Below, in pieces: positions 23,361-53,989 of a stretch of 64,000 nucleotides of DNA. The translations under genes were made by a program, and so were the position numbers. Numbering within the stretch: the first letter of the stretch is position 1; the number at the start of each line of letters is the position of its first letter. The stretch lies in assembly GCA_046758325.1 (NCBI GenBank), contig JBHHZZ010000002.1, positions 14,990-78,989 of the forward strand, given 5' to 3'. Below the pieces are notes generated by a model. It was not told the DNA's origin and did no database searches. It worked only from the letters and a program-made list of their open reading frames with translations. Source of the stretch: Thermoplasmata archaeon (GTDB lineage: Archaea > Thermoplasmatota > Thermoplasmata > RBG-16-68-12 > JAJISG01).

Positions 23361-23366
23361 GGTCCG

Positions 23367-31438: not shown

Positions 31439-32989
31439 CTAGCCGAGGAGGAAGGTGGCCGCCCTTACCACGAAGTCCAGGAATGGGAAAGCTAGGACGC
31501 CCGTAGCGATTGTCCCAACAGTGGCGATGGAGAGGGCAATGGCGTAGGCCCTCGGCACCCGCAAGCGCTCCCCAGGTCCCTCTAGGATGTACATGTGCTT
31601 CACCAACCTGGCGTAATAGTAGAGGGAGAGGGCGCTGTTGAGCACACCGGCAATGGCAAGGGATATCATCCACTCGCTCCCTGGGATCTGCCCGGCCCGA
31701 ACTGCAGACCAGAAAAGAATGAATTTGCTCACGAAGCCCCCTAGAGGCGGTATGCCTGCCAAGGAGAGCAGCAAGATCATCATGCTGAAGGCCACGAGAG
31801 GCATCCTCTTGGCCAAGCCGCTGAAGTCATCCAGCCTCTCACCTATGAGAAGCGTGCCCATCAGTGCGACGACTATGAAGGCGCCACCCTTCATGAAGAC
31901 GTACACCAGCAGGTGGTAGAGGCCTCCCGCCATTCCGAAGGCCGCGATGGTCGAGTCCGAGTGGCTCCCCACGACGAGGGCGATGAGGATGTAGCCTGCA
32001 TGCCCTATGCTGGAATAAGCCAGCATCCTCTTCACGCTCTTCTGAGGCAAGGCAGCAACGTTGCCAACCGTCATGGTTGCGATGGCCAGGATGCCCATGG
32101 CTAGGACCCACTGACCAGCGGCGCCTATGAGGGCAATGAGGAATATTCGAAAGATGGCCGCGAAGCCCATGATCTTCGAGGCGGTACTCAGCAGCGTCGT
32201 GATGGTCGTCGGGGCCCCCTCGTAGACGTCGGGTACCCACATGTGGAAGGGCACGGTGGCTACCTTGAAACCAAAGCCCGCGATGAGGAGAATGAGAGCC
32301 ACGACCACCGTCGGCTCATACAGCAGCAGGCCCGCGCTAATGGTAGTTTTGAGAATCCGCAGGTCGGTGTAGGAACTCGAGATTCCCTGACTGCTCCCGA
32401 CGTGGCCACTGACGCCATAGATGAGGGAGATGCCGAAGAGGATAAGAGCCGAGCTCACGACGCCTATGATGAAGAACTTCATGGCGGCCTCAGTAGCCCT
32501 CCGATCTCTCTTCCGGAAGGCGGCCAGGGCGAATGTGGCGATGCTGGCCATCTCGAAGGAGAGGTAGAGCACGAAGAGGTCCGTGGCGGCGGCCACCATG
32601 AGCATGCCCACCAGTGAGATCAGCAGCAGTCCGTAGTATTCCCCAGGGTTCCTGTCATCCTCCCGTAGGAAGGCCCGGGAGGCCAGGACGACTAGGATGC
32701 CGGTGAGGATTATGGCTATGAAGAAGAAGAGGGTGAAGGGATTGACCTCCATCATCAGCTCCGGCAGCTCCACAGCCACGGGCAGGGTCCAGAGCTCAAG
32801 GCCCAGGAACGGGAGGATGCCCAGACCCATCATGTCCAGCGTCAGAAACAGGGCTATTCCCAGGCCGATGAGGGCGATGTCCGCGAGCCTGGCCTTGTTC
32901 CTGACGATGAAAGTGAGCGCTATGAGTAGAAAGCCGAAGAAGGTGAGGACCAGGACCGGCGAGAGGACTATCCATTCGGGATAGGGCAC
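31439..32989 (-). CDS. nuoN: Complex I-like subunit N
   Basis: SFEMAS, EAAMKFF, FKVATVPFHMWVPDVYEGAPT, KRMLAYSSIGHAGY. Confidence 0.93.
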   Translation of the reverse strand: MPYPEWIVLSPVLVLTFFGFLLIALTFIVRNKARLADIALIGLGIALFLTLDMMGLGILPFLGLELWTLPVAVELPELMMEVNPFTLFFFIAIILTGILVVLASRAFLREDDRNPGEYYGLLLISLVGMLMVAAATDLFVLYLSFEMASIATFALAAFRKRDRRATEAAMKFFIIGVVSSALILFGISLIYGVSGHVGSSQGISSSYTDLRILKTTISAGLLLYEPTVVVALILLIAGFGFKVATVPFHMWVPDVYEGAPTTITTLLSTASKIMGFAAIFRIFLIALIGAAGQWVLAMGILAIATMTVGNVAALPQKSVKRMLAYSSIGHAGYILIALVVGSHSDSTIAAFGMAGGLYHLLVYVFMKGGAFIVVALMGTLLIGERLDDFSGLAKRMPLVAFSMMILLLSLAGIPPLGGFVSKFILFWSAVRAGQIPGSEWMISLAIAGVLNSALSLYYYARLVKHMYILEGPGERLRVPRAYAIALSIATVGTIATGVLAFPFLDFVVRAATFLLG

Positions 32990-34543
32990 CTAGACCACCC
33001 CTCCCATGGATTCGAAGAGGACCCGGGACCAGTCTACGAAGAGATCCATCAAGGGCGTGGGGAAGATGCCGAAGAGGGCGAAGAGGGCTGCCAGGACGCC
33101 CAAGGGCAGGATCTCATACACAGCGATGTCCTTTGTGGTTCCGAGCTTTTCGTTGAAGGGTCCGTGGATCGCCCTCTGCACGGCATACAGGTAGTAAGCC
33201 GCCGTGAGCACCACGGTGAGGATGGGGACGAGGACCCAGAGGCCGAAGGCCTGGTAGGTACCCAGGAAGACGGTGAACTCCGCGACGAAGCCGACCAATC
33301 CAGGGAGGCCTAGGGATGCCAGGAAGGCGGTAAGTATGAAACCCGACAGGACGGGCACGCGGTTCATTATGCCGCCCAGCTCCGAGATGTTCCGGGTGCC
33401 GATGCGATGGCCGACGGATCCGGCCACCATGAAGAGGGCAGCGGATATCAGCCCGTGAGCGAACATCTGGAAGATGGCCCCGCTCATCCCCATGAGGCCC
33501 CCCAGCTCGCCCGGGGACCCATTGCTGAATGCGAAGAGGGCTGCACCTATGCCCAGCATCACTATCCCCATGTGGCTGATGCTCGAGTTGGCTATCAGTC
33601 TCTTCAGATCGTCCTGAGCCAGACAGACGAGGGCTCCGTAGAGTATGCTGATGGTCCCGATTACGACAAAGACCCAGAAGAGAGCCGTTGAGGCCTGAGG
33701 GAGCATCTGCACGTTTACCCTTATGAGACCGTAGCCTCCCATCTTCAGTAGGACCCCCGCAAGGATGACGGAGCCTGCCGTGGGGGCCTCTACGTGGGCA
33801 TCCGGCAACCAGGTATGGAAGGGTACCATGGGCAGCTTGGTACCGAACCCTATCAGGAGGGCGACGAAGAGGAGGTCCTGGACGACGCCGATGGGGATCG
33901 GCCTCCTTTCGATTATGGCCAGCATGCTGAAGGCGTCCTCACCACCGCCCATGTAGTAGTAGAAGGCCAGGATGCCGAAGAGGACCAGCAAGCTGGCTGC
34001 CTGGGTGTAGAGGAAGAACTTGATGGCCGCGTACCTCTTCCTGGGACCACCCCAGATGGCTATCATGAAGTACATGGGAACGAGCTGGAGCTCCCAGAAG
34101 ATGAAGAATAAGAAGAAGTCCAGGGCCATGAAAACGCCCAGGATCGTGGTTTCCATTAGGAGGAGAAGGGAGTAGAACTCCCTGACGCGGTGGGACTCGT
34201 CCCAGGAGAAGATGGCGGCCAGGGGGAAGAGGATGGTGGTCAGCAAGACCAGGGAGAAGGAGAGCTCGTCAACGCCGAGACGGTAGAACACGTGGATGTG
34301 CGGTATCCAGAGAGCCTCTTCAAAGGCTCTGTATCTACCTGTAAGCGCGTCCGTGCCGAGGGAGACCACATCCAGTCGCAGGAAGCCGACCAGCAAGTAG
34401 AGGGACAGGGCTAGGGGGAGGAAGGAAGTCGCCACTGCCAGGATTCTCGCGGTGGACTCCCTCCTGGCGAGGAGGTAGATGAGTACAGAGGCTATGACCG
34501 GGATGAATAACATCAGACTGAGGATCGGAAGCTGAAGGGCCAT
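32990..34543 (-). CDS. nuoM: Complex I-like subunit M (second copy)
   Basis: FWELQLVPMY, KLPMVPFHTWLPDAHVEAPT, LKMGGYG, GLVGFVAE. Confidence 0.92.
   Translation of the reverse strand: MALQLPILSLMLFIPVIASVLIYLLARRESTARILAVATSFLPLALSLYLLVGFLRLDVVSLGTDALTGRYRAFEEALWIPHIHVFYRLGVDELSFSLVLLTTILFPLAAIFSWDESHRVREFYSLLLLMETTILGVFMALDFFLFFIFWELQLVPMYFMIAIWGGPRKRYAAIKFFLYTQAASLLVLFGILAFYYYMGGGEDAFSMLAIIERRPIPIGVVQDLLFVALLIGFGTKLPMVPFHTWLPDAHVEAPTAGSVILAGVLLKMGGYGLIRVNVQMLPQASTALFWVFVVIGTISILYGALVCLAQDDLKRLIANSSISHMGIVMLGIGAALFAFSNGSPGELGGLMGMSGAIFQMFAHGLISAALFMVAGSVGHRIGTRNISELGGIMNRVPVLSGFILTAFLASLGLPGLVGFVAEFTVFLGTYQAFGLWVLVPILTVVLTAAYYLYAVQRAIHGPFNEKLGTTKDIAVYEILPLGVLAALFALFGIFPTPLMDLFVDWSRVLFESMGGVV
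33732..33817. repeat. 86-bp exact repeat, copy in second nuoM
   Basis: Identical to 35268-35353 by direct comparison. Confidence 0.9.
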
Positions 34544-36067
34544 TCAGCCACCTCCCGAGGCTAGTACGACGGAATCCCTCAGAATCCCGCTAAAGGGGTA
34601 TATCTGGTCTATCCAAAGGGCAGGGAAGAGGGCGGTGAGGAAGATGAAGACGGTGACTAAGGCCATAGGCAGGTACTCATCCATCCTCAGGTCCCGCACC
34701 TTGCCCAAGGCAACATTGAATTCACCCAGGAGGACCCGATGCATGGTCCAGATGTAGTAGGCCCCCGTGAGGACCACGGCGATGAGGGGAATGATGACCA
34801 GTTTCTTGATGTCCAGGGGAAGCCCTGCGTAGGTTCCGGTGAAGACCATGAACTCGCTGATGAAGCTGTTTAGCCCTGGCAGTCCGAGGGAGGCCAGGAA
34901 ACTGACGATGAGCAAGAAAGCGAAGAAGGGCATCTTGGACCCCAGCCCCCTGAGGTGAGGGATCTCTCTACTACCGGTACAGTGCTTGACAGCGCCTGCC
35001 AACATGAAGAGGACCGCCGTAATGAGGCCGTGGTTGAAGAGCTGAAATATGGCACCGGCGATGCCTATGGTGGTAAACGTCGAGGCCCCCAGGAGGACGA
35101 ATCCCATATGGCCGATGCTCGAGTAGGCAATCAGCCTCTTGAGGTCGAGCTGGACCAAGCAGACCAGGGATGCGTAGATCATGCTGACGATGCCAAGGGT
35201 GGCCACGAGCCACCATAGGTCTACGGCCGCCAGGGGCAACATGGTGTACCCGATCCGGAAGAGGCCATAGCCTCCCATCTTCAGTAGGACCCCCGCAAGG
35301 ATGACGGAGCCTGCCGTGGGGGCCTCTACGTGGGCATCCGGCAACCAGGTATGTAGGGGAACCATGGGGAGCTTCACGCCGAATCCTATCAGGAAGGCCA
35401 GGAAGACAGGGATCTGAATGCTCAGGGACAGTGCCGGGGCGAGCTCGGCGATCTTAATCATGTTGAGGGTGTTCGTGTGGAAGGCAAGGGCGAAGATGCC
35501 CAGGAGCATGATGACGCTGCCCACGTGGGTGTATATGAGGAATTTTATGGCGGCGTAGTGCCTGTTCGGCCCTCCCCATATCCCTATGAGGAAGTACATG
35601 GGAATGAGGACCAGCTCCCAGAAAACGAAGAACTGGAGGAAGTCCAGGGAGATGAACACGCCCATGAGCGCCAGGCTGATGATTTGAAGCAGGGCATAGT
35701 ACTCCTTGGGCTTGAAGTCCTCCTCCATGGGGAAGATGACGGCCACGAGGAGCAGGAGCGCAGTCAGGAAGGCCAGGGGCATGGAGAGACCATCGACTCC
35801 CAACCTGAAGATCACAGGGATGTCCATTATGCGGAACCACAGGTAGTCCTCGTAGGCCGTGTAGGTGCCCGTCGTATCCCTATCGAGGCCCAAGTCCACC
35901 GCCGGCGATACGAAGCCCGCAAGAAGCACGATGGAGGTCAGGAACGTGAGCAGGGCGAAGAGGATGGCGATGTTCCTCGCCTGAGGCCGCGTCCATCGGC
36001 CAAGGAGGGTGATGGCTGCCCCCAGACCCGGGAGGGCCAGCATGATGGTCAGATAGGGGAGAGCCAT
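34544..36067 (-). CDS. nuoM: Complex I-like subunit M (first copy)
   Basis: FWELVLIPMY, KLPMVPLHTWLPDAHVEAPT, GLNSFISE. Confidence 0.92.
   Translation of the reverse strand: MALPYLTIMLALPGLGAAITLLGRWTRPQARNIAILFALLTFLTSIVLLAGFVSPAVDLGLDRDTTGTYTAYEDYLWFRIMDIPVIFRLGVDGLSMPLAFLTALLLLVAVIFPMEEDFKPKEYYALLQIISLALMGVFISLDFLQFFVFWELVLIPMYFLIGIWGGPNRHYAAIKFLIYTHVGSVIMLLGIFALAFHTNTLNMIKIAELAPALSLSIQIPVFLAFLIGFGVKLPMVPLHTWLPDAHVEAPTAGSVILAGVLLKMGGYGLFRIGYTMLPLAAVDLWWLVATLGIVSMIYASLVCLVQLDLKRLIAYSSIGHMGFVLLGASTFTTIGIAGAIFQLFNHGLITAVLFMLAGAVKHCTGSREIPHLRGLGSKMPFFAFLLIVSFLASLGLPGLNSFISEFMVFTGTYAGLPLDIKKLVIIPLIAVVLTGAYYIWTMHRVLLGEFNVALGKVRDLRMDEYLPMALVTVFIFLTALFPALWIDQIYPFSGILRDSVVLASGGG
35268..35353. repeat. 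86-bp exact repeat, copy in first nuoM
   Basis: Identical to 33732-33817. Confidence 0.9.
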
Positions 36068-36070
36068 GGA

Positions 36071-38146
36071 TCACACTCCTAGAAGCGGAAAGACTATCTG
36101 GACGACGAAGAGGATGACGGCGGCGCCAAGGACAATGACGGCGGCGTAGGTCTGCACCTCCCCCGTCTGCCCTCTCCTCAGGGTCCATCCTCCTCGTAGA
36201 GTGCTCAGACTGATGCTGTTGACCACCCCGTCAACCGCTCTGCGGTCGAAGATGTCCGTACCCCTGGCCGTGAGGAGGGTGATACGGGCTGCCAGGTTGA
36301 CGAGACCGTCGATGACATATCGATCGAAGAAGTCACTCAGCTTCGCGAAGCCATAGACTAAGCGGAGGCCGAATTCGTCGTAGAGGTCGTCAATCCAGTA
36401 CCTCCTCTCCAACATGGTGTGCAGGAAGTTGCGAGCCCTGGTAGCGGTGAAGGCGGAGGATGGGATGGATCCTATCAGGTACACGAGGGAGGCCAGGCCG
36501 AGGCCCGCCCCGGCGGCCAGCAAAGATATGTAGGTGGGGAAGCTCGAGGGCCCGACGAAGGTCTTCATCAGTAGCTTGTCTGGCGACACGTACTCCGCGT
36601 GGACGCCCTCTAGGGTGGGGAAGATGAAGTTGCCGAATCCCCCCATGGCGAACATGAAGAGGCCGGAGCCCACTGCGAAAATCGAGAGGATCACCAGAGG
36701 CGCTGTCATCACCTTGGGAGCCTCGTGAGGCTCCTGCTCCCACCTGGGAGAGCCCTTGAAGGCCATGTACCACAAGCGGAACATGTAGAAGGCCGTCATG
36801 AAGGCCGTTAGGACGCCGAGAACCCAGAGGTAGAAGAAGGCCTGACTCCCCGCAGAGGCACCATAGGCGGCGGCCAACACCTCGTCCTTGCTCCAGAATC
36901 CACTGAAGGGCGGTATCCCCGAAATGGACAGGGCACCGAGGAGCATGGTCATGGATGTGATCGGCATCCTATTGTGGAGAGCGCCCATCTTCCGCAGATC
37001 GTTCGTACCCATGGCATGGATGACGCTCCCCGCACCAAGGAAGAGGAGGGCCTTGAAGAAGGCGTGGTTCGTCAGATGGAATATGGCGGCCGCATATCCC
37101 TCCTGGGCTCCCTCCAGCCCCACCTGGATGGCGTATGCCGCCGTCCCCAGGCCCAGGAACATGTATCCCAGCTGGCTTATCGTGGAAAAGGCCAGCACCC
37201 TCTTGATGTCGTAGTTGGCCAGAGCCATTGTGGCGGCGAAGAAGGCCGTGAAGCCTCCGATGATGGCTACGAGGAAGGCGATATCCAGAGAGTTGACAAC
37301 CAAGGGTATCGCCCTGGCCGTCAAGTAGACCCCTGCCTTGACCATCGTGGCAGCATGTATCAGGGCACTCACAGTGGTGGGGCCCTCCATGGCATCCGGA
37401 AGCCATGCATGCAGCGGGAACTGGGCGCTCTTGCCAATGGCTCCGCCGAAGAAGAGGATGGGTACTACGGAGAGGAGGTGCACGGGAATCCCCGGTGCAG
37501 CCGCGGACACCTCTCTGATGTTGAAGGTGCCAAAGAGGACGAAGACGGTGATGACCCCCACCAGGAAGAGAACATCCCCCACGCGGGTCACCATGAAGGC
37601 CTTCTTGGCCGCGCTGGCCGCCTCAGGTTTGTGGTACCAGAACCCTATGAGGAGGTAGGAGCAGAGACCCATGATCTCCCAGAAGATGAGCAGCTGGAGG
37701 AAGTTGTTGGCCGATACCGTGCCCAGCATGCCGGTGACAAAGAGGGATATCTGAGAGTAGTAGCGGGCTTTGTCCTTCTCGCGGCCCATGTAGCCAACGG
37801 AGAAGACGGCGATGAGGAGGGAGAGGAAGGAGACCAGGGCGAGCATGAGGACGCTCAGGTTGTCCACCAGGACTCCGAACTCAATGACCTGGCCCATCTC
37901 GGGAGAGCCGAGCCAACGGTACCACACCCTCTCCTGGGCCTCAAAGTGACCTCCCAGAGCGCCGCCAAGGAGGGCGTGGGCCAACAGGATTATGGCCAGG
38001 ACAAAGGAAAGGCCTATAGAGCCGATGCACCAGGCTGCCCCACCCTCCCACTGCTTCCTTCCTGTGAGGATGATGATGACGAAGGCTACCAGGGGGGAGG
38101 CGACGATGAGCCACGAAAGGTCCACGATCCAAGAGAGGGCAACCAA
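36071..38146 (-). CDS. nuoL: Complex I-like subunit L with extended lateral helix
   Basis: FWEIMGLCSYLLIGFW, GKSAQFPLHAWLPDAMEGPT, GFWSKDE; FDR..DG.VN repeated at 26-aa spacing. Confidence 0.95.
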   Translation of the reverse strand: MVALSWIVDLSWLIVASPLVAFVIIILTGRKQWEGGAAWCIGSIGLSFVLAIILLAHALLGGALGGHFEAQERVWYRWLGSPEMGQVIEFGVLVDNLSVLMLALVSFLSLLIAVFSVGYMGREKDKARYYSQISLFVTGMLGTVSANNFLQLLIFWEIMGLCSYLLIGFWYHKPEAASAAKKAFMVTRVGDVLFLVGVITVFVLFGTFNIREVSAAAPGIPVHLLSVVPILFFGGAIGKSAQFPLHAWLPDAMEGPTTVSALIHAATMVKAGVYLTARAIPLVVNSLDIAFLVAIIGGFTAFFAATMALANYDIKRVLAFSTISQLGYMFLGLGTAAYAIQVGLEGAQEGYAAAIFHLTNHAFFKALLFLGAGSVIHAMGTNDLRKMGALHNRMPITSMTMLLGALSISGIPPFSGFWSKDEVLAAAYGASAGSQAFFYLWVLGVLTAFMTAFYMFRLWYMAFKGSPRWEQEPHEAPKVMTAPLVILSIFAVGSGLFMFAMGGFGNFIFPTLEGVHAEYVSPDKLLMKTFVGPSSFPTYISLLAAGAGLGLASLVYLIGSIPSSAFTATRARNFLHTMLERRYWIDDLYDEFGLRLVYGFAKLSDFFDRYVIDGLVNLAARITLLTARGTDIFDRRAVDGVVNSISLSTLRGGWTLRRGQTGEVQTYAAVIVLGAAVILFVVQIVFPLLGV

Positions 38147-38147
38147 C

Positions 38148-38450
38148 TCACCACCTCAATATCCTCACCTTGTCCAGGTCCACGGTCCCGTGGACACTGT
38201 ATAATACGAGGAAGATGGCCAGGCCAATGGCAGCCTCCCCCGCTGCCAGGGCAATGGAGAGAAGGGCAAGCACCTGCCCCGAGGGATCGTTGACATACGA
38301 CGAGAAGGCCACGAAGTTCATGATAGCTGCGTTGAAAATAATCTCCACAGACATCAGGACAATGATGCCGTTCCTCCGAACGAGGACTCCATAGAGGCCT
38401 ATGGCGAAAAGGATGGCCGACAAGGAGAGCTCCCACTCCAGGGGGATCAT
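38148..38450 (-). CDS. nuoK: Complex I-like subunit K
   Basis: GLYGVLVRRN, MSVEIIFNAA, AAGEAAIGLAI. Confidence 0.93.
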   Translation of the reverse strand: MIPLEWELSLSAILFAIGLYGVLVRRNGIIVLMSVEIIFNAAIMNFVAFSSYVNDPSGQVLALLSIALAAGEAAIGLAIFLVLYSVHGTVDLDKVRILRW

Positions 38451-38674
38451 GGCCCTTCCTCCTTCCTAGCCAGGAAAACCCCTCCTACCATGGCCACGGC
38501 CAGGAGCAAGGCCATAACGATTATGCTGAAGGCGAAGTTCTCAAAGAGGGACCTTGCCACGCTCTCATTGGAGATGGTCTGGGATGAGGGGTTCCAGGGC
38601 AGTCCCACGAAGGAGGCCACCATCAAGATTGTCAGAAGAACCAGGCCTGTAAGAACGAGCACCCTCTCCTTCAA
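38447..38674 (-). CDS. nuoJ: Complex I-like subunit J, C-terminal half (split J2)
   Basis: TTG start overlapping the J1 stop; VARSLFENF..SIIVMALLLAVAMVGGVFLAR. Confidence 0.8.
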   Translation of the reverse strand: MKERVLVLTGLVLLTILMVASFVGLPWNPSSQTISNESVARSLFENFAFSIIVMALLLAVAMVGGVFLARKEEGP

Positions 38675-38934
38675 GGTACCTCCTCCATCATCCTGGTTCG
38701 GGTCAGCATTATGCCGAAGAGGAACACCACGGGAACGGCGCCAGCATACACGAGGATCTGGATAACGGCCACGAACTCTGATCTGAACAGAATGTAGATG
38801 CCAGCCATGGTGACCAGGGTTATTGCCAGCCAGAAGGCAGCCCACATGAGCTTCTTTGCCGTCACCACTAACAGGCTCGTAACGACCTCCACAGCGGAGA
38901 CGATTATGAAAATGACCTGGATAGCTTCGACCAT
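38671..38934 (-). CDS. nuoJ: Complex I-like subunit J, N-terminal half (split J1)
   Basis: AAFWLAITL..AGIY...EFVAVIQILVYAGAVPVVFLF. Confidence 0.88.
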   Translation of the reverse strand: MVEAIQVIFIIVSAVEVVTSLLVVTAKKLMWAAFWLAITLVTMAGIYILFRSEFVAVIQILVYAGAVPVVFLFGIMLTRTRMMEEVP

Positions 38935-38972
38935 CTCTTGACCTTCCTCACGTCCTGAAACCGTTCCTCCAT
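38904..38972 (-). other. 22-codon mini-ORF in the nuoI slot (MEERFQDVRKVKRWSKLSRSFS)
   Basis: ATG shares its A with the nuoH TGA (TGATG overlap); may be a nuoI deletion scar or non-coding. Confidence 0.3.
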
Positions 38973-40156
38973 CAGATCCACCCATTTGAAGAGGCTGTGA
39001 CGACGAGTACTGCGATCAGGAGGTTGAGCAGACACAGGGGAATGAGCTTCCTCCAACCGATGCTGAGGATCTGGTCGATGCGGATCCTAGGCACAGACCA
39101 GCTTATCCAGACGAAGATGAAGAATACGAAATAGACCTTGAGGATGAACCAGATCTCCTGGGGAAGGATGGGGCCATCCCAGCCGCCCAGGAACAGGAGG
39201 GCAACGAGGGCTGCACCTACGAAGGTTCTCAGCCACTTGAACCCGAAGACCATGCCATACCTCATGCCGCCGTACTCCACCAGCCAGCCGTGAACCAGCT
39301 CCTCCTCAGCCTCCGGCAGATCGAAGGGCACCCTCTCCGTCTCAGCAATCATGGCCAGAATGAAGACGAAGAAACCCAGGAACTGGGGTATGATGAACCA
39401 GTTCCGAAGGCCGCTATTCGCCAGGGGGCCTATGATGGAGGGCTCTGACTGGGCCCGGACGATGTCGATGGGGTTCAGACTCCCCGCCAAGACGATGACA
39501 CCGATGGTGGCGAGAATCATCGGTATCTCGTAGGACATCATCATGGCGGCGGCTCTCATGCCTCCCAGCAGTGCGTACTTGTTGTTCTGGGACCACGAAG
39601 CCAGAAGGATGGCCAATGGCGTCAGGGAGAAGGCTGCGATGATGAGGAGGATGCCTGCAGGCACATTGGCCACGACGAATCCTTCGCTGAAAGGTAGGGC
39701 CGCCAGGACGAGGACGGTGGAGGCTATCAGGAAGGCGGGGGCCACGTGGAACATGATCCTGTCAGCAGCCGCGGGGGTGATGTTCTCCTTCTGCAGCAGC
39801 TTCAGGCCGTCGGCAATCTGCTGGAAGAAGCCAGTCCCTTTGAACCAGAAGCCCTTCAGGGGCTGGGACAGCATCGGCCCCCTACGATCCTGCAAACGGG
39901 CCACTACTTTTCTCTCCAGCCAGATCATCGTCAGGAGATGAAGGATGGCGGCCCAGGTGATCATGAGGGTGATGGCCACGATCCAGGTGATGAGGACGAC
40001 CAGCGGATCCCACCTCAGGAGATCGGCTAGGGATTCTAGGAAGCCCAAGGGGGGGATGGCTGCCGCTATGGTGTCGAGGATGAAGGTCACTATGCCTATG
40101 AGGAAGACAGTGATGGCGTGGCTCGCCCCGAACAGGTCTACGAGATGGCCGCTCAT
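38972..40156 (-). CDS. nuoH: Complex I-like subunit H
   Basis: ERKVVARLQDRRGP, IADGLKLLQKE, LGGMRAAAMMMSYE, PFDLPEAE.ELV.G..VEY.G. Confidence 0.95.
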   Translation of the reverse strand: MSGHLVDLFGASHAITVFLIGIVTFILDTIAAAIPPLGFLESLADLLRWDPLVVLITWIVAITLMITWAAILHLLTMIWLERKVVARLQDRRGPMLSQPLKGFWFKGTGFFQQIADGLKLLQKENITPAAADRIMFHVAPAFLIASTVLVLAALPFSEGFVVANVPAGILLIIAAFSLTPLAILLASWSQNNKYALLGGMRAAAMMMSYEIPMILATIGVIVLAGSLNPIDIVRAQSEPSIIGPLANSGLRNWFIIPQFLGFFVFILAMIAETERVPFDLPEAEEELVHGWLVEYGGMRYGMVFGFKWLRTFVGAALVALLFLGGWDGPILPQEIWFILKVYFVFFIFVWISWSVPRIRIDQILSIGWRKLIPLCLLNLLIAVLVVTASSNGWI

Positions 40157-41232
40157 TTGTCGATTTCTCCTACGCAGACATCGATGCTTCCCGTGATAGA
40201 GACGACATCAGCTACGCGATGGCCCCGGAGCATCTTCGGCAGTGCTGATAGCGTGACGAAAATGGGCGAGCGAATCTTGACCCTGTACGGCCTGTCGCTT
40301 CCATCCCCGATGACGTAGATGAGTGCCTCGCCCCGGGAGTCCTCCGTCCTCGCGAATCCATCCCCTTCAGGTCGCTTGGGGGGCTTGATACGAAAGGGGC
40401 CGTCGGGAAGCTGCCGCAGGGCCCCCTCTACTATCCTGATGCTCTCGAAGAGCTCTCCCATCCTCACCTTGTAACGGGCGTAGGCATCCCCCTCCTCATA
40501 GACCACAGGCTCAAACTCTACCTCACCATACGCGTCGTAGGGCTCCATCTCCCTGATGTCTACGCGAGCACCTGATGCCCTCAGGTTTGGACCCGTCACT
40601 CCATAGTTGATGGCGTCCTCCTTGCTGAGGACGCCTACCCCATGGGTCCTCATGACGAAGGTTGGGCTCTCGTCCAGGAGGTTCTCATACTCCTTGAGCT
40701 TCTTCCTGAGGTACCTGAAGACCTTGCGGGCCTCGTCCTCGAATCCTGGCTGTATGTCGTTATGGACGCCGCCGGGTCGCGGATAATTCTGGTTCATCCG
40801 CTGTCCCGTCATGAGCTGCAACAGGTCCAGAACCAGCTCCCTCTCCCTGAGGCTGTAGAGGAACCCTGTAAGCAGGCCCAGGTCCGCCAGGAAGGCAGCG
40901 AGCCACATGAGATGAGAAGCCATCCTTTGGAGCTCGCATCCGATGACCCTCAGGTACTTTCCTCGAGGCGGCGGCTCGATATCCATCAGGTCCTCCACGG
41001 CCAGGCAGTACACGTGGGCCCATGTGAGGGAGGACACGTAGCAGAGACGGTCCATGAGCGGAATGGGTTTCAGGTAGTCCCTGTACTCACATATCTTCTC
41101 GACCCCTCGATGGAGATATCCCATCTCCGGATCGGCGTCTACCACTGTGTCCCCGTCCACCTTGACCCTCAGGTTCCACAGGCCGTGGGTCATAGGATGC
41201 TGGGGGCCCATGTTGATCCACATCTCAGGCAC
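40153..41232 (-). CDS. nuoD: Complex I-like subunit D
   Basis: GPQHPMTHG, GYLHRGVEK, DRLCY, KIRSP, GSID.CVGEIDK; no NiFe CxxC motifs. Confidence 0.95.
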   Translation of the reverse strand: MPEMWINMGPQHPMTHGLWNLRVKVDGDTVVDADPEMGYLHRGVEKICEYRDYLKPIPLMDRLCYVSSLTWAHVYCLAVEDLMDIEPPPRGKYLRVIGCELQRMASHLMWLAAFLADLGLLTGFLYSLRERELVLDLLQLMTGQRMNQNYPRPGGVHNDIQPGFEDEARKVFRYLRKKLKEYENLLDESPTFVMRTHGVGVLSKEDAINYGVTGPNLRASGARVDIREMEPYDAYGEVEFEPVVYEEGDAYARYKVRMGELFESIRIVEGALRQLPDGPFRIKPPKRPEGDGFARTEDSRGEALIYVIGDGSDRPYRVKIRSPIFVTLSALPKMLRGHRVADVVSITGSIDVCVGEIDK

Positions 41233-41234
41233 TT

Positions 41235-41696
41235 CTACTCCCCCTGGTAGTCCTTCCTGAGGGGGTGAAACTTGAAGTCCTGCGGAAGAAGTATCCTCCT
41301 CAAGTCTGGATGCCCCTTGAAATCGATTCCCAGGAGGTCGTAGGCCTCCCGCTCGTGGTACAGGGCACCCTTCCAGATATCGGAGACGGTGTCCGCCACG
41401 GGGTCGCTGCTGGGAATTCTGACATTGAGCTGGATGACGCAGTTGCGCTCGTAGGAGACGATGTGATATACGTTCTCCATGTACTCGATCCAGTCCACGC
41501 CTGATATGCAGGAGATGTGCTCGAAGTTCATGTCGTCCCGGAGAAAGAGGCAGACGGACCGGAGGGCCTCCCGCGACAATGTGGCTCTCACCCTTCCAGG
41601 CTTCACGACCTCGGCCTCCTTCACGTCCTCGGGGAACCTATCCCGCAGGCTCTCAACCAGCTCCTCATCAAAGGGCACCTTCCTCCCCTTCCACAA
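41235..41696 (-). CDS. nuoC: Complex I-like subunit C
   Basis: ISGVDW, W.GA.YHEREAYDLLGI.F.GHPDLRRILLP..F..HPLRKD. Confidence 0.95.
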   Translation of the reverse strand: MWKGRKVPFDEELVESLRDRFPEDVKEAEVVKPGRVRATLSREALRSVCLFLRDDMNFEHISCISGVDWIEYMENVYHIVSYERNCVIQLNVRIPSSDPVADTVSDIWKGALYHEREAYDLLGIDFKGHPDLRRILLPQDFKFHPLRKDYQGE

Positions 41697-41699
41697 CGT

Positions 41700-41753
41700 T
41701 CAGATGTCTCGTCTCTTCTGGCCCCGGGCTTCGGCCGCCCCACGGCGACTCAT
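41700..41753 (-). other. 17-codon mini-ORF in the nuoB slot (MSRRGAAEARGQKRRDI)
   Basis: ATGA overlap with the nuoA stop; ends 3 nt before the nuoC TTG. Confidence 0.35.
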
Positions 41754-42112
41754 ATCGTGTAGACCTCCTCCTTCTTCAAGGAGTAGAGGGTGGCGGCCGT
41801 TATGATCATCACAAACAGGAGCATGAGAACCTGCGCCAACGCCGACAGCCCACCCTTGTATATGAGAGCGAAAAGTATGATGAAGATGGCCGCCACATCG
41901 AAAATGATGAACATGATGGCGAACAGGTAGTACTGGAAGTTGAACTGTATCTGGGCCTCCCCCTCGGGCACCTCCCCGCACTCATAGGTGGTTAGCTTCA
42001 ATGGTGTCGGCCTGTCGGTTCTCACAATCCTGGTTATGAGGAAGGTGAGGAAGGGAAATGCTATGGCGATTAGAACGAATACCGCCACAGGGTAGTACAG
42101 CTCGAGGGCCAT
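41750..42112 (-). CDS. nuoA: Complex I-like subunit A
   Basis: KLTTYECGE, FNFQYYLFAIMFIIFDVA. Confidence 0.95.
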   Translation of the reverse strand: MALELYYPVAVFVLIAIAFPFLTFLITRIVRTDRPTPLKLTTYECGEVPEGEAQIQFNFQYYLFAIMFIIFDVAAIFIILFALIYKGGLSALAQVLMLLFVMIITAATLYSLKKEEVYTI

Positions 42113-42133
42113 TCGGGTCGGCTATGGCTCCTA

Positions 42134-42148
42134 TTTATTAAACCTTTG
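42134..42148 (-). promoter_or_regulatory. BRE/TATA promoter of the nuo operon
   Basis: Minus strand CAAAGG-TTTAATAAA about 22-30 nt upstream of the nuoA ATG. Confidence 0.65.
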
Positions 42149-42304
42149 TTCGTAGCTTGGCAAGAGCAGGCTACAAGAATCTGCAGGCAGTATTATCTGC
42201 TGCGCCTGAGCGCGGTCCCTGATCCTACGTTCCGTCTGGCGCGAGAGCTGATGTTACCTTCCATGATTCTCAAGAAAGGGGGGATAGAGGAGGCTCCAGG
42301 TTAG

Positions 42305-42577
42305 TTAGCGTTCCTCCCCCAAAAACACCCTGGAGCCAGCCTCCCTCATCAGGATGTGAGCCAAGGATGTCAGCTCCTCCGTCGAAAGCTGTTCCGCGTT
42401 GCTGACAAGAATTTCGGCAGCCCTCCTCACAAGCCACAGGGGTACCTTTATCCCCCCTCTGGCTGACAAGTCCACGATTCTCACTTCCTCTTGCAGGGAC
42501 TTTCCCTCCTCAAGCTCTCTTCTGGTAGCCGTACCGCCTGGGCGGTCAGACAGCTTCCTGCAGACCAGCCCAACCAC
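42305..42577 (-). CDS. Small hypothetical protein
   Basis: 90-aa ORF filling an otherwise empty gap, helical-looking C-terminal half; no family recognised. Confidence 0.4.
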   Translation of the reverse strand: MVGLVCRKLSDRPGGTATRRELEEGKSLQEEVRIVDLSARGGIKVPLWLVRRAAEILVSNAEQLSTEELTSLAHILMREAGSRVFLGEER

Positions 42578-45053: not shown

Positions 45054-45115
45054 AGCGGAGCAGTTACTAACATTTATAATGAGCAGCCCATTGGGCCTTG
45101 CGGTGGTTTCAGGCC

Positions 45116-46633
45116 ATGGTTTACAGCGACCTCAGCTACGCTTATAAGAGACTCCAAGACACTCTCGGTGCAGAAAGGGTTTCTCGGGACGATACAGAGA
45201 AGCTGGTGTACGGCCACGACTTCGGCCCCCTGCCGAAGCAGGCAGCCATACAATTCGAGCTCAAACCTGACATCATCACCCTCCCAAAGTCCACCCAAGA
45301 GGTCGTCCGCATCCTGGAACTCGGACGTGAGTTGGAAATCCCCGTCGTCCCCAGGGGCGGCGCCACGTCTTTTCACGGTGGTTGTGTACCCAACGTGGGT
45401 GGCATCCTCCTCTGCACCAATCTGATGAGGAAGGTAGAGGAGGTCGATGATGAGCGACTGTGCGTCACCGCTCAGGCCGGGGCCACCTGGAAGGATGTCA
45501 TAGAGGCCGTATCCGATGCTGGCCTCTTCCTTCCTGTCGTCCCCATGTTCTACAGGTCAGCCACTGTAGGGGGTTTCTTGAGCAACGGCGGGGTGGGCAT
45601 CGGCGCCTACAAGTACGGCGCTCCCTCCCAGTGGGTCCGCAGCCTCGAGGTAGTGCTCCCGAACGGACAGATCCTTGGCACAGGGGAGAGGTCCTTCGAC
45701 CTGGGCTCCCTGAACTACAACCTCACCAGCCTCTTCCTCGGTGCGGAGGGCACCCTCGGTGTGATAGCAAAGGCGACCCTGAGGTTGTTGCCGAAGCCTG
45801 GCCAGATGGCCAACACCGCGTACAGCTTCGAGGGCATGGGAGGATTGGCAGAAGCCCTGAAGCAGCTGGCGAGAACCCCCGTGACCCCCTACCACGTCGG
45901 CTTCGTTGACGGTGCCCACCTGCTCCTTCAAAGGACCCGCCTAAGGCAGCTCCCCGATGTCCCGGCCATGGCGATACTGACCTTCGATGGATCAAAGGAA
46001 GAGATAGAGGCTGAGAGGAAGGCTGCCGATGACACCCTCTCCTCTTTGGGGAAGAGGGAGGAGGATGAATCAGCGAGCATCCTCTGGGAGCACATATACG
46101 AGCCCTACGACGCCCGAAGAATCTCCGGCGGTCTAGTGGTCGCAGAGGGGGTCGTACCGCTCTCAAACTTGGAGAAAGCTGTGCAGGCAACGATTCGGGA
46201 AGCCAGGAGGATAAGGGCGGAGCCAGCCTTCCATGGCTTTCTGGTGGACCGGGGCTCAGCATTCTTAGCCCCCTATATCCTCACGGACGAGAGAACCCTG
46301 AGGGGGCAGCTAGCCATCTCTTTCGTGGAGAGATACCACAAGACCCTCATGGACCTGGATGGTCACCCCTTCGGCCTGGGACTGCTCACGACCTACAACC
46401 TAGACGCCATGTACGGTTCCGTGGCAGGCCATATGAGGGCCATCAAGGAAGCCCTCGATCCCAAGGCCATAGTGAATAGGGGCAAGCTCCTGGGAACCAC
46501 GGGGAAGACACCGCCCTTCGCCCCTCCAGAAATCCCGGCAGGACTCATACGTCGTGGGCTAAGGACACTTGGAAACCTCAGGAAGCTCATGCCCTCAGAC
46601 AGGTACATAAGCAGGTTGAGGAGGGGGAAGTAG
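45116..46633 (+). CDS. FAD-linked oxidase (GlcD/VAO family) with atypical catalytic motifs
   Basis: PVVPRGGATSFHGG, ATVGG, LGAEGTLGVI, ALDPKAIVNRGK; lacks HAGDGNLH and EHG.G. Confidence 0.85.
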   Translation: MVYSDLSYAYKRLQDTLGAERVSRDDTEKLVYGHDFGPLPKQAAIQFELKPDIITLPKSTQEVVRILELGRELEIPVVPRGGATSFHGGCVPNVGGILLCTNLMRKVEEVDDERLCVTAQAGATWKDVIEAVSDAGLFLPVVPMFYRSATVGGFLSNGGVGIGAYKYGAPSQWVRSLEVVLPNGQILGTGERSFDLGSLNYNLTSLFLGAEGTLGVIAKATLRLLPKPGQMANTAYSFEGMGGLAEALKQLARTPVTPYHVGFVDGAHLLLQRTRLRQLPDVPAMAILTFDGSKEEIEAERKAADDTLSSLGKREEDESASILWEHIYEPYDARRISGGLVVAEGVVPLSNLEKAVQATIREARRIRAEPAFHGFLVDRGSAFLAPYILTDERTLRGQLAISFVERYHKTLMDLDGHPFGLGLLTTYNLDAMYGSVAGHMRAIKEALDPKAIVNRGKLLGTTGKTPPFAPPEIPAGLIRRGLRTLGNLRKLMPSDRYISRLRRGK

Positions 46634-46634
46634 G

Positions 46635-48059
46635 ATGTCTTCCGGCAACGTGGACCTGATGGACAGGCTCAGACGCTTCCCCGGCCTGGAGAGGGTTCCC
46701 AGGGAGGAGCTAGTGAAGGCCGTCTACCTGAAGGACAAGAGGGCCCTGCCCGACGATCTCAAGAGGCTTCTCGACAGCATTACCGTCTTGAGGATTCCCG
46801 TTGAGGACGCCGAGGATATATCCCACATCCTGGGGGTAGCTACAGGGGAAGTGGCCGGCATAAGCCTCGGTCTGCCGGCGGACTCCCTACACTACGTCAG
46901 AACCCGACTGGCCATGATGAAGGACCGGGAACTTGCAGTGGATTGGACCCCCAGGGAGGACCCTTTCGACGGTGAGATACTTCCCCAACTGGATGGCTTC
47001 CAGGTGGACCTGGCAAAGCTGAAACGAGTTGAGCTGGACGAGGAGAACGGGGTGGTCCTCTGTGGAGTTGGAGCAAGGTGGCGGGAGGTCTTCGAGACCT
47101 GCGAATCGATGGGATGGATCTTTCCCCTCTCCCCCATCCTGCCCTCAAACCCCTACCTGGGAGACGTGGTGGGCGGTACCGCTTTCTTGGCATCGTTCAA
47201 GGGCGGACCTGAAGCGTATGTCAGAAACATCGACTTCCTCTCACCCGACGGCCGCTATGGGGAAAGCGGCTTTGATCTCGTACCCAATAATGCCGCCGGT
47301 TACGACCTGAACTCCCTCATGCTGGTAATGGGGCGCCACATGATCATACCGGTGTCCGTCACCTTCACCCTTCTTCCCATGGCTTCCACAGTGAAGACCT
47401 CGAGGTACAGCGTCTGGAGCCCGGAGGCTCTGGTCGAGGCTATGAGAAATCTCATCAACACCCGGGTGCAACCTCTCAGAGTTTCCTTTGGCGACGGAAC
47501 TGGATCCCTGCTGGCCTTTGGCCGGGAAGGGGAGCCCACCATCGAGATTGTCCTCGCCGGGACTGAGGAAACTCTCCCCGTCCAGCAGAAGCTCGTGGAC
47601 GCCGCCTTCAAGGAAGGTGCGAACAAGGAAGAAGTGGAAGGGCTGACGCATGTCACACAGTCAGCCCCGGGTGGTGATGCCCCACCTTCCCTACTGGTGG
47701 AGTTTCGCGCCTCTCTTGCGGACCTCCAACTCATACTTCAGGATGTGACATCCTGGGTGGAAGCACAGGGCTCCGGGTTCGGCATCATCGGTTCCCTCTA
47801 TCAGGCAGGAACGGTCAGCGTCATCCCCTTCATCAGCGGACAGACCAACCGGGGCGAGAGGTTTACCCGGGTGCTGGAACTCGCTCAGATTGCCCGCAAG
47901 CATAGCTGCAGGCTGCGGAACAACCCGACAATCCACCTTCTCTCGCCAGAGGCAAACTTGGGGAAGCGGTTCGCCCTCGTACGTAGGATGAAGGAGAGGG
48001 TGGACCTCCCCCACGTGATCAACCCGTCCAGCCTCCTCATGGTTCCCAGAGACCTCTGA
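46635..48059 (+). CDS. Degenerate FAD-oxidase-fold partner subunit (GlcE-like)
   Basis: VGARW, NAAGYDLNSL, KERVD..VINP; no GGGT flavin loop. Confidence 0.7.
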   Translation: MSSGNVDLMDRLRRFPGLERVPREELVKAVYLKDKRALPDDLKRLLDSITVLRIPVEDAEDISHILGVATGEVAGISLGLPADSLHYVRTRLAMMKDRELAVDWTPREDPFDGEILPQLDGFQVDLAKLKRVELDEENGVVLCGVGARWREVFETCESMGWIFPLSPILPSNPYLGDVVGGTAFLASFKGGPEAYVRNIDFLSPDGRYGESGFDLVPNNAAGYDLNSLMLVMGRHMIIPVSVTFTLLPMASTVKTSRYSVWSPEALVEAMRNLINTRVQPLRVSFGDGTGSLLAFGREGEPTIEIVLAGTEETLPVQQKLVDAAFKEGANKEEVEGLTHVTQSAPGGDAPPSLLVEFRASLADLQLILQDVTSWVEAQGSGFGIIGSLYQAGTVSVIPFISGQTNRGERFTRVLELAQIARKHSCRLRNNPTIHLLSPEANLGKRFALVRRMKERVDLPHVINPSSLLMVPRDL

Positions 48060-48065
48060 GGCATA

Positions 48066-48407
48066 TCACATCAGAGCGACTCCACACTTGTCACATACTG
48101 TCTGACCCTTCTCCGCCACATTCCCGCATCTGGGGCACACGTTTGGCATATTCATCTTGACGGGCCAGATCGTGAAGAGCAGGCCGAGGGCGAGGAAGAG
48201 CCCAGCCATCCACCAGTTGGCGGTGTAGATGCCCTCAAGACCGATAGCGAAGAGCACCACCGCAGACACCTTGGATATGAGAATGACCTTCTGGACCTTC
48301 GGAAGCTGCTTGATGAGACGAATCTCCGCTTTTCTGGACATCCTGCGAGGCCATCGCGGCCTGTCAGTGTCTCCCTGCTCACTGCCGAGCTCCCCCGACA
48401 TCTCCAT
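48066..48407 (-). CDS. Small 2-TM protein with C-terminal zinc ribbon
   Basis: Two hydrophobic helices; CPRC..(10)..CDKC. Confidence 0.65.
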   Translation of the reverse strand: MEMSGELGSEQGDTDRPRWPRRMSRKAEIRLIKQLPKVQKVILISKVSAVVLFAIGLEGIYTANWWMAGLFLALGLLFTIWPVKMNMPNVCPRCGNVAEKGQTVCDKCGVALM

Positions 48408-48411
48408 CTGG

Positions 48412-48828
48412 TCAGGCCCCCGCCACTTCCTGGACGGGCGCGGGCTTTCCGTCCACGACCTCCCACCCAGGTCTCGGAATCATCACAATGGCTTCTACGG
48501 GACAAATGACGGCACACTTGGCGCAGCCGATGCAATTCTCATCCACGATGAAGGATTTGCGGGTCTCGAAGCTCATATCGGGCAGGTAGGAAGTCTTGTC
48601 GATGAAGACAATGGCATCCTCATGGTCAGGCCGCACGTTCTCCGGACAGTTATCGGCGCAGTGGATGCAGCCCATGCATATGTCTTCGTACACGTAGGCT
48701 ATCACCCCCTTCCCCCGGGGGTACTTAAGGACGAAGTTCCTGCGCATCTCGTCAAAGCTCTTCTTGGCAGTGTGACGAGACCTGTGCCTTGCCAGCCTGG
48801 AGTCCGCCAGCGCCTCCATCTTGGTCAT
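48412..48828 (-). CDS. 2x[4Fe-4S] ferredoxin
   Basis: CMGCIHCADNCP and CIGCAKCAVICP; ATGA overlap with the upstream gene. Confidence 0.9.
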   Translation of the reverse strand: MTKMEALADSRLARHRSRHTAKKSFDEMRRNFVLKYPRGKGVIAYVYEDICMGCIHCADNCPENVRPDHEDAIVFIDKTSYLPDMSFETRKSFIVDENCIGCAKCAVICPVEAIVMIPRPGWEVVDGKPAPVQEVAGA

Positions 48829-51181: not shown

Positions 51182-51184
51182 TCC

Positions 51185-51949: not shown

Positions 51950-51960
51950 CCCTATACCCC

Positions 51961-52728: not shown

Positions 52729-52729
52729 G

Positions 52730-52957
52730 TTACTCCTTCAACTCCCTTCTTGGAATTATTTTGGGTATTCTCGTCTTCACGACCATCTCATCGGGGAGGA
52801 AATGATTCCGGTAGATGTCCACCATGGCGGCCATGCCAAAGAACATTGCCCCTATCCACAGCGACAGCCAAGTGGGATCCCAACCATCGATGAGACCGAT
52901 CACTATGAGAGCACCAAAGAACAGCTGGAAGAAGGCGAGCACATATATCGTCACCAA
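52730..52957 (-). CDS. Small 2-TM membrane subunit
   Basis: Hydrophobic ORF tightly packed between cupredoxin and Rieske genes. Confidence 0.7.
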   Translation of the reverse strand: MVTIYVLAFFQLFFGALIVIGLIDGWDPTWLSLWIGAMFFGMAAMVDIYRNHFLPDEMVVKTRIPKIIPRRELKE

Positions 52958-53001
52958 GGCCGTCAGCGCCTCAGTCGGGGGCTCTGTGCGTATTATCTCG
53001 G

Positions 53002-53937: not shown

Positions 53938-53989
53938 CGCTTCCGCATCCCTCCAATCCACCGGGGCCGGTCCCGCGTAAGTTGCTAGC

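Follow-up and report, generated by a model that had tools for sequence, protein, structure and literature searches.

A Thermoplasmata 2M complex I-like operon without nuoB and nuoI, which are most likely encoded as a separate gene pair

Gene content and layout of the operon

The 64-kb stretch of DNA analyzed here (the window) comes from an uncultured Thermoplasmata archaeon related to Methanomassiliicoccales and carries on its minus strand, between positions 31439 and 42112, a complex I operon with the gene order nuoA-C-D-H-J1-J2-K-L-M-M-N (Table 1). This order had been read from the sequence in a preliminary description and is upheld by Pfam and NCBIfam profiles. Subunits A, C, D, H, J, K, L, M and N are all present and pass their Pfam cut-offs, except for the C-terminal half of NuoJ (27.5 versus 33.2 bits), while NCBIfam cut-offs are passed by D, L, both copies of M, and N. 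The top NCBIfam models for nuoC are those of NuoC/FpoC, which it misses narrowly or more widely (TIGR01961, 121.7 versus 122.45 bits), and the gene may start at a TTG (41696) or at a GTG (41678), the latter being the start called on the Logan contig. Division of NuoJ into two genes is common to the window and its Methanomassiliicoccus relatives.

Table 1. Features of the complex I-like operon, in window coordinates
Feature	Coordinates	Strand	Basis or remark
Candidate operon promoter, A/T-rich TATA-like box AAAGGTTTAATAAATAGG	42128..42146	-	5' of nuoA; sequence inspection
nuoA, 120 aa	41750..42112	-	PF00507, E 3.9e-23; identical gene call on Logan contig
nuoA-nuoC spacer, 53 nt	41697..41749	-	nuoB slot of canonical relatives
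nuoC, 147-153 aa	41235..41696	-	PF00329, E 5.6e-40
nuoD, 359 aa	40153..41232	-	PF00346, E 6.9e-87; NF004739, 430 bits (cut-off 360)
nuoH, 394 aa	38972..40156	-	PF00146, E 3.2e-103
nuoH-nuoJ1 spacer, 37 nt	38935..38971	-	nuoI slot of canonical relatives
nuoJ1, 87 aa, N-terminal half of split NuoJ	38671..38934	-	PF00499 positions 2-64; Logan gene call
nuoJ2, 75 aa, C-terminal half of split NuoJ	38447..38674	-	PF00499 positions 77-146; gene call
nuoK, 100 aa	38148..38450	-	PF00420, E 3.4e-28
nuoL, 691 aa, lengthened type	36071..38146	-	PF00361 and PF00662; NF005141, 592 bits (cut-off 556)
NuoL lateral-helix insertion, 26 residues (NuoL 619-644), AARITLLTARGTDIFDRRAVDGVVNS	36215..36292	-	Alignment; C-terminal lateral helix
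nuoM copy 1, 507 aa	34544..36067	-	TIGR01972, 466.9 bits (cut-off 263.8)
nuoM copy 2, 517 aa	32990..34543	-	TIGR01972, 512 bits
nuoN, 516 aa	31439..32989	-	TIGR01770, 352.5 bits (cut-off 332.6)

The enzyme type called 2M complex I is reportedly the subject of Chadwick, Hemp, Fischer & Orphan (2018, ISME J 12:2668). In the operon, two adjacent genes score above the TIGR01972 cut-off and share 46% identity, and it is copy 2 that the single NuoM of 1M relatives matches best. Alignment of NuoL revealed the 26-residue insertion in the window, in the related genomes L002, L005, L008 and L013 and in the 2M relative L014, and its absence from the 1M relatives L009, L010, L012 and L015 and from a bacterium. 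The definition of 2M complex I quoted in PMC6606698 names two features, an additional NuoM and a NuoL lengthened in the lateral helix, and by these we assign the operon, from its sequence, to the 2M type, which PMC9040806 describes as well.

NuoD retains both histidines of the GPQHPMTHG motif and the tyrosine of the RLCY motif when aligned with NdhH and Nqo4, as the preliminary description had proposed for the His/His/Tyr residues of the quinone site. Its best match among solved structures is cyanobacterial NdhH (6hum_H, E 1.4e-92). A Group 4 membrane-bound [NiFe] hydrogenase of the Mbh or Ech kind was considered and rejected, as NuoD has neither the N-terminal nor the C-terminal CxxC NiFe ligands, PF00374 (NiFe hydrogenase) falls under its cut-off, and the large subunits of Mbh and FHL are more distant PDB matches (E 4e-54 and 8.5e-48) than NdhH. 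The presence and conservation of NuoC, NuoD and NuoH likewise led us to reject a Mrp-type cation/proton antiporter.

The nuoB and nuoI slots

Outgroup operons (NuoD identity 52-61%) have the order A-B-C-D-H-I-J1-J2-K-L-M-N. The spacers of about 50 and 40 nt noted earlier in the window at the A-C and H-J junctions measure 53 nt (nuoC from the TTG) or 71 nt (nuoC from the GTG) and 37 nt, respectively, and neither has room for a gene. Within the nuoA-nuoC spacer, which gave no NuoB profile match, lie a Shine-Dalgarno-like run, GGAGGAAGGTG, and a 17-codon open reading frame that overlaps the nuoA stop. The earlier statement that no open reading frame of the window has NuoB motifs (CC..E, CPP) agrees with both searches applied to it: BLASTP with the NuoB and NuoI of a relative found no NuoB in the 64 kb, and a NuoB profile run with hmmsearch --max against all six-frame window reading frames of at least 25 aa gave no match (best E 5.8). 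No NuoI-like frame was found either, as the NuoI profile recovered from the window only generic 2x[4Fe-4S] ferredoxin motifs, chiefly in a 174-aa ferredoxin (48412-48936). This protein was rejected as a displaced NuoI because it scores 40.8 bits against a cut-off of 217, aligns only with the general ferredoxin portion of the profile and belongs to a Rieske/cytochrome b operon. Two related genomes carry inserts between nuoD and nuoH (2.3 kb in L001, 0.5 kb in L006), which hold only unrelated reading frames for small membrane proteins and so do not conceal B or I. No NuoEFG or FpoF input module adjoins the operon within the window. Literature searches on complexes without nuoB returned no match, and those combining Thermoplasmata, nuoB and nuoI returned nothing relevant.

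A gap of this kind could be an artefact, either of a collapsed or mis-joined assembly or of a strain-level deletion confined to this bin, and the source metagenome does hold at least two related populations, a setting in which mis-assemblies occur. However, positions 38400-42400, which include both spacers, are reproduced on single Logan contigs from three runs with 0-1 differences and neither joints nor loose ends, so that three independent assemblies do not bear out the collapsed or deleted segment that the preliminary description had asked to be checked, and a Logan contig carries the exact NuoD flanked by identical neighbors. The same gene order is common to ten metagenome-assembled genomes (MAGs) from other studies and habitats, and the other population present in these runs shows collinearity through H, D and C as well. 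We thus regard an artefact as extremely improbable.

A separate nuoB-nuoI pair in related genomes

The ten related Thermoplasmata MAGs share with the window the A-C-D-H-J1-J2-K-L-M-M-N order lacking B and I, and in nine of them (bin292, ERP108616_co2_1, co2_123, co2_28, co2_132, MT2bin.10, CSMAG_355, FS_3_bin.22 and K_1_bin.30) another contig encodes a long NuoI that is 80-100% identical to the query P0041. Directly 5' of this nuoI lies nuoB in seven of the ten, that is, wherever the contig extends far enough upstream; the contigs of FS_3_bin.22 and K_1_bin.30 begin at nuoI, which places nuoB outside the view. The one MAG in which no pair was found, Baj_3_bin.12, is a highly fragmented bin. 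Scans of these MAGs showed one pair type per MAG, with the B/I-less operon and the pair each seen once, and the relatives' contigs had neither another nuo gene within 6 kb of the pair nor any other C/D/H-type partner adjoining it. The neighborhood is conserved and comprises a divergent TrmB-family gene, nuoB, nuoI, a Bac_luciferase gene and a FeS_assembly_P (PF01883) gene; a TTTATA box, TATA-like and a candidate promoter, is conserved 60-85 nt 5' of nuoB. A soil MAG, L020, has this neighborhood too, and gave the first stand-alone B-I pair among the matches listed in a scan of genome contigs with a six-sequence NuoB alignment. At NCBI the relocated NuoI is named merely "4Fe-4S binding protein".

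Both proteins of the pair are Nuo-type by curated thresholds: NuoB of the relative L106 passes NF005012 and TIGR01957, and its NuoI passes TIGR01971. Pair-type NuoB has its four N2 cysteines intact (CCxxE...C...GCP) and is extended at the C terminus by ~35 conserved residues not present in operonic NuoB, and pair-type NuoI has four CxxCxxCxxxCP motifs, corresponding to N6a/N6b and one further 2x[4Fe-4S] domain. The pair-type sequences group in a single clade of the NuoB tree (SH-aLRT 99), and this clade is nested, with a support of 98, with operonic NuoB from L009, L010 and Methanomassiliicoccaceae. This placement of a single clade among operonic sequences indicates one move of the genes and no replacement; the relocated NuoB was inherited vertically and has a single origin.

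For the window's own genome, the evidence comes from read depth. The window has a depth of 57.9/55.3/51.1 in runs X1/X2/X3, and contigs matching the TrmB side, the nuoI 3' end and the luciferase side of the relative's locus have depths of 51.9/54.7/51.4, 62.4/55.7/51.6 and 54.7/54.3/51.6, respectively; the second relative in the same runs lies at 42.5/38.9/33.6. The match is one of short Logan contigs in a metagenome with at least one other clade member, and with three runs similar in depth its covariation is weak evidence. The depth-matched TrmB-nuoB-nuoI contigs are 80-86% like L106, a divergence that fits the 79% nucleotide identity between the window operon and that of the same relative and supports their assignment to the window genome. 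We infer from these contigs of the source samples that the window's genome carries the nuoB-nuoI pair.

Because close relatives keep nuoB and nuoI as a separate two-gene unit, we favor gene relocation over a complex that lacks its Fe-S wire. It is highly probable that both genes were moved together to another place in the genome, where they form a bicistron, and that the complex itself is complete and ordinary, with the window encoding the membrane arm of a 2M complex I-like (Fpo/Nuo-like) enzyme along with those quinone-module subunits that carry no Fe-S cluster. The plain pair met in the related MAGs reduces the gap to a simple relocation, as the preliminary description had foreseen for such a case. 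Its suggestion that B and I had been relocated as an exchangeable electron-input module is borne out for the relocation, by the pair in nine of ten relatives and by the depth-matched contigs, but not for the exchangeable module, given a single, vertically inherited pair type per MAG and the nature of B and I as an internal Fe-S conduit. The relocation is ordinary and lies within a known enzyme type. Pathway calls based on the operon alone would nonetheless flag complex I as "incomplete" in these Thermoplasmata MAGs.

The other possibility raised at the outset, a complex without its own Fe-S wire, would make the enzyme a redox-independent, Mrp-like antiporter with vestigial C, D and H, the pair serving some other enzyme. 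If true, a complex I devoid of N2 and N6a/b would mean a new form of electron delivery to quinone or a redox enzyme turned pure ion transporter. The operon itself encodes no Fe-S protein, and its membrane subunits share homology with those of Mrp antiporters, which appear among the lower-ranked NCBIfam matches. Against this, no large subunit of the clade is better conserved than NuoD (83-91% identity), and this conservation, together with the retained quinone-site residues, is hard to explain without an adjacent N2 cluster. Moreover, the pair found in relatives passes Nuo-type thresholds and derives from the B that the lineage's own operon once held. It accompanies the B/I-less operon in nine of ten MAGs, the scans recording each locus once per MAG, and no other C/D/H-type partner was seen beside it. 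We consider this reading very unlikely.

Relocation might, on the other hand, be functional. The pair would then be an Fe-S cartridge, controlled by TrmB and matured by the PF01883 protein, that is added to a ready-built scaffold only under some conditions or also serves a second one; the Fe-S-free 2M scaffold would be constitutive and become redox-active only if iron, oxygen or substrate allow, or the cartridge would be lent to another scaffold. Consistent with such an arrangement are the synteny of divergent TrmB, nuoB, nuoI and FeS_assembly_P, kept from marine and vent MAGs to the soil MAG, the conserved TATA-like box and leader that nuoB has of its own, and the C-terminal extension of pair-type NuoB. 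Neutrality also predicts, however, that synteny stays conserved once a single ancestral event has taken place, and the analysis turned up no second scaffold; complex I gene sets split over several loci are, besides, common in other organisms, as with the scattered cyanobacterial ndh genes. A functional role of this kind is unlikely in our estimate, though somewhat less so than an Fe-S-free enzyme. The pair with its regulator and Fe-S-assembly neighbor would offer a natural system for the coordination of Fe-S and non-Fe-S complex I expression.

Proposed assembly and relation to known complexes

Under the relocation that we favor, nuoB (cluster N2) and nuoI (N6a/N6b and the extra 2x[4Fe-4S] domain) would have been excised together from their ancestral operon slots and would now form a separate bicistronic chromosomal unit, with its own putative TATA-like promoter, divergent from the TrmB-family regulator gene and followed by the genes for a luciferase-like oxidoreductase and a small Fe-S-assembly protein (PF01883). 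The products of both loci may join into one ordinary complex, in which reduced ferredoxin would donate electrons to the extended NuoI and these would pass via N2 of NuoB to a membrane quinone at NuoD/NuoH, with pumping by the four antiporter-like subunits. Ferredoxin as the donor and quinone as the acceptor are suggested by analogy with relatives and by the gene neighbors.

Like 2M complex I, the operon has its second NuoM beside the first, the NuoL insertion and no adjoining NuoEFG; unlike it, nuoB and nuoI lie outside the cassette as a bicistron (as seen in the relatives), NuoJ is split in two in the window, and the NuoI of the relatives' pair has an additional 2x[4Fe-4S] domain. Among complexes with a canonical layout, the nearest in sequence is the Fpo-like complex of Methanomassiliicoccales (L012, L015), which consists of FpoABCDHIJKLMN without FpoF and FpoO (e.g. 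PMC4153887). Common to both are split J1/J2 and the lack of an input module in the operon, and its FpoI is long and has four [4Fe-4S] motifs, like the NuoI of the pair in the window's relatives. In the Methanomassiliicoccus relatives, by contrast, B and I occupy their operon slots, M is a single gene and the NuoL helix is short.

Cyanobacterial and plastid NDH-1 is a ferredoxin-fed ferredoxin:plastoquinone oxidoreductase of 11 core subunits without NuoEFG, and its genes are dispersed over several loci. There, ndhK (B) stays with ndhC/J and ndhI with ndhA/G/E, and the two are not paired together. NDH-1 (PDB 6hum, 6khi), whose NdhH is the best solved-structure match of NuoD, differs from the window enzyme in its lineage and in extra subunits specific to oxygenic photosynthesis.

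A four-pump 2M complex I in a non-methanogen-looking relative of Methanomassiliicoccales is a point of interest in its own right. At a distance of 6 kb from the operon, the window has genes for a Rieske/cytochrome b complex and for cupredoxins, which point to quinone respiration and not to methanogenesis.

The nuo operon and its missing Fe-S subunit genes

The nuo operon of the window comprises 11 closely spaced genes, identified with Pfam and NCBIfam, and the gene order read in the preliminary description is thereby confirmed; nuoJ is split into J1 and J2, and the two nuoM paralogues share 46% identity. In NuoD the histidines of GPQHPxTHG and the tyrosine of the quinone site are kept, as had been read; the protein's best relative of solved structure is cyanobacterial NdhH. 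The spacers, estimated at about 50 nt (A-C) and 40 nt (H-J), measured 53 nt with the nuoC start at TTG 41696, or 71 nt with GTG 41678 as called on an independent contig from Logan (public assemblies of metagenome runs), and 37 nt between nuoH and nuoJ1. Both carry Shine-Dalgarno-like purine runs, each for the next gene, and neither has room for a gene. An ORF of 15-18 codons occupies the nuoA-nuoC junction in the window and in eight relatives' loci (L001, L002, L004-L008, L013). Its start overlaps the stop codon of nuoA, as ATGA in the window and as TTGA in relatives, and it stops just 5' of nuoC. It was found in every clade member checked, its sequence (M/LSRRGG...) is weakly conserved, and it gave no match to the NuoB profile; such an ORF could serve translational coupling or be open by chance in a GC-rich spacer.

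The earlier statement that no ORF in the window encodes NuoB also held: BLASTP with a relative's NuoB found none in the 64 kb, and an unfiltered NuoB profile run over all six-frame ORFs of at least 25 aa gave a best E-value of 5.8. Matches to the NuoI profile in the window were confined to generic ferredoxin motifs. The best of these, a 174-aa 2x[4Fe-4S] ferredoxin, was rejected as NuoI, as it scores 40.8 bits against a curated cut-off of 217 and is part of the adjoining Rieske/cytochrome b operon.

The exact window NuoD occurs with identical neighbours on a Logan contig of SRR29324601, and the stretch is present in three public hydrothermal-vent runs, each of which spans 38400-42400 with a single contig (0-1 differences, no joints, no loose ends). 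A NuoD scan of species-representative genomes yielded ten Thermoplasmata/"Methanomassiliicoccales" MAGs (NuoD identity 83-91%), obtained in other studies from cold seeps, trenches and sediments, and all ten show A-C-D-H-J1-J2-K-L-M-M-N without B or I as far as their contigs extend. The assembly artefact raised in the preliminary description is excluded by these unbroken contigs and this identical order. The operon without nuoB (cluster N2) and nuoI (N6a/N6b) is a lineage trait; relatives at 52-61% NuoD identity, Methanomassiliicoccus among them, have the canonical A-B-C-D-H-I-J1-J2-K-L-M-N.

A second related population in the same vent samples, about 79-82% identical in nucleotides to window 39000-41700, carries H, D and C in collinear order on a contig of 34 kb. 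The operon is further interrupted between nuoD and nuoH in two relatives' loci, by 2.3 kb in L001 and 0.5 kb in L006, where the inserts encode unrelated small membrane proteins; these interruptions suggest that the cassette is coming apart in this lineage.

Coordinates of features in the window and in relatives' loci
Feature	Sequence	Coordinates	Strand
nuoA, C, D, H, J1, J2, K, L, M, M, N	window	31439-42112	minus
NuoL insertion (residues 619-644)	window	36215-36292	
nuoA-nuoC spacer ORF	window	41700-41753	
Tandem cupredoxins; Tat-signal protein (probably Rieske); cytochrome b N-terminal part; cytochrome b C-terminal/subunit IV-like protein fused to HdrC-like 2x[4Fe-4S] domain; CCG-domain protein; 174-aa ferredoxin	window	48066-53961	minus
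174-aa ferredoxin	window	48412-48936	
FAD-linked oxidase gene set	window	20779-24824	minus
FAD-linked oxidase gene set	window	45098-48059	plus
nuoD-nuoH insert	L001	1811-4175	
nuoD-nuoH insert	L006	3060-3601	
nuo operon with nuoB/nuoI	L014	8421-19046	
Pair-type nuoB	L106	5370-6038	

A nuoB-nuoI pair relocated in relatives

The absence of nuoB and nuoI from the operon is most likely a relocation of both as one unit; the deflating case allowed for in the preliminary description, a plain pair elsewhere, was found in relatives. A stand-alone pair in the soil MAG locus L020 was among the matches listed in a scan with a NuoB alignment, and a protein-collection search with its NuoI, followed to the contigs, gave more in marine Thermoplasmata. 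Their context is constant: TFIIB, a divergent TrmB-family regulator, nuoB, nuoI (overlapping nuoB by about 40 nt), a luciferase-like oxidoreductase, a 100-aa Fe-S-assembly protein (PF01883) and a CCG/ferredoxin protein. Within 6 kb of each pair there is no further nuo gene. A scan with P0041, the NuoI of one pair, located the pair on separate contigs in nine of the ten MAGs having the B/I-less operon (bin292, ERP108616_co2_1, co2_123, co2_28, co2_132, MT2bin.10, CSMAG_355, FS_3_bin.22 and K_1_bin.30, the contig starting at nuoI in the last two), the sole exception being the very fragmented Baj_3_bin.12. A TTTATA box 60-85 nt 5' of nuoB is conserved, as is the leader sequence, consistent with an independent promoter. 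In eight pair loci (L101-L104, L185-L188) the oxidoreductase is a PF00296 protein, possibly F420-dependent, and the CCG protein is HdrD/GlcF-like; NCBI annotates the pair's NuoI merely as "4Fe-4S binding protein".

Pair-type NuoB scores above the cut-offs of the NuoB subfamily models, with CCxxE, the third Cys and GCP all retained. The NuoI encoded beside it clears TIGR01971 and shares with the long FpoI of Methanomassiliicoccus a set of four CxxCxxCxxxCP motifs. In a quick IQ-TREE run on 98 sequences, pair-type NuoB forms one clade (SH-aLRT 99), nested (98) with operonic NuoB of Methanomassiliicoccaceae and of the one-NuoM relatives L009 and L010. Such a single, nested clade argues that the genes moved once within the lineage, before soil and marine members branched, and were not replaced by foreign genes. 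Pair-type NuoB is extended at its C-terminus by about 35 conserved residues (…RTGRLVSxREGQL…GEMTYEVPQV…) in L106, L105, L111 and L020, an extension absent from operonic NuoB of L009, L012 and L015.

The TrmB-nuoB-nuoI-luciferase locus of the closest relative (L106) was matched to the three runs (X1-X3) at a likeness of at least 80%. The matched contigs show 80-86% likeness to it, in keeping with operons of window and relative that are 79% identical in nucleotides; the second population, likewise a clade member, contributes B-I pieces of its own at lower depth. Circumstantially, these data speak well for the presence of the pair in the window's genome, but they do not prove it.

Depth in the three vent runs
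Contig	X1	X2	X3
Window operon	57.9	55.3	51.1
TrmB gene and nuoB start	51.9	54.7	51.4
nuoI 3' part	62.4	55.7	51.6
Luciferase-like gene	54.7	54.3	51.6
Second clade member (operon)	42.5	38.9	33.6

What remains of mild interest is the clean partition of Fe-S from non-Fe-S subunits, together with the conserved TrmB and Fe-S-assembly neighbours and the NuoB extension; that the split has regulatory meaning we consider improbable.

Enzyme type and respiratory setting

All clade members and L014 share a 26-residue insertion in the C-terminal lateral helix of NuoL, which is absent from one-NuoM relatives. The window operon thus has both hallmarks of the "2M" complex I (Chadwick et al. 2018), a second NuoM and a lengthened NuoL, as set out in PMC6606698 and PMC9040806. 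L014, from a groundwater Methanobacteriota/Thermoplasmata MAG, has two NuoM and the insertion with nuoB and nuoI still in the operon, so the 2M state and the relocation are separable. Neither NuoEFG nor FpoF adjoins the window operon; this, the long NuoI and the NdhH-like NuoD make reduced ferredoxin the most likely donor. The Rieske/cytochrome b/cupredoxin cluster 6-12 kb upstream suggests a membrane quinone as acceptor.

That respiratory-looking operon would imply quinol oxidation in the organism. One of the two FAD-linked oxidase sets is followed by a GlcF/HdrD-like 2x[4Fe-4S]+CCG protein and looks like the glycolate or D-lactate oxidase GlcDEF. Between these sets and the nuo operon sit TatA and TatC, the latter with a C-terminal extension of 330 aa.
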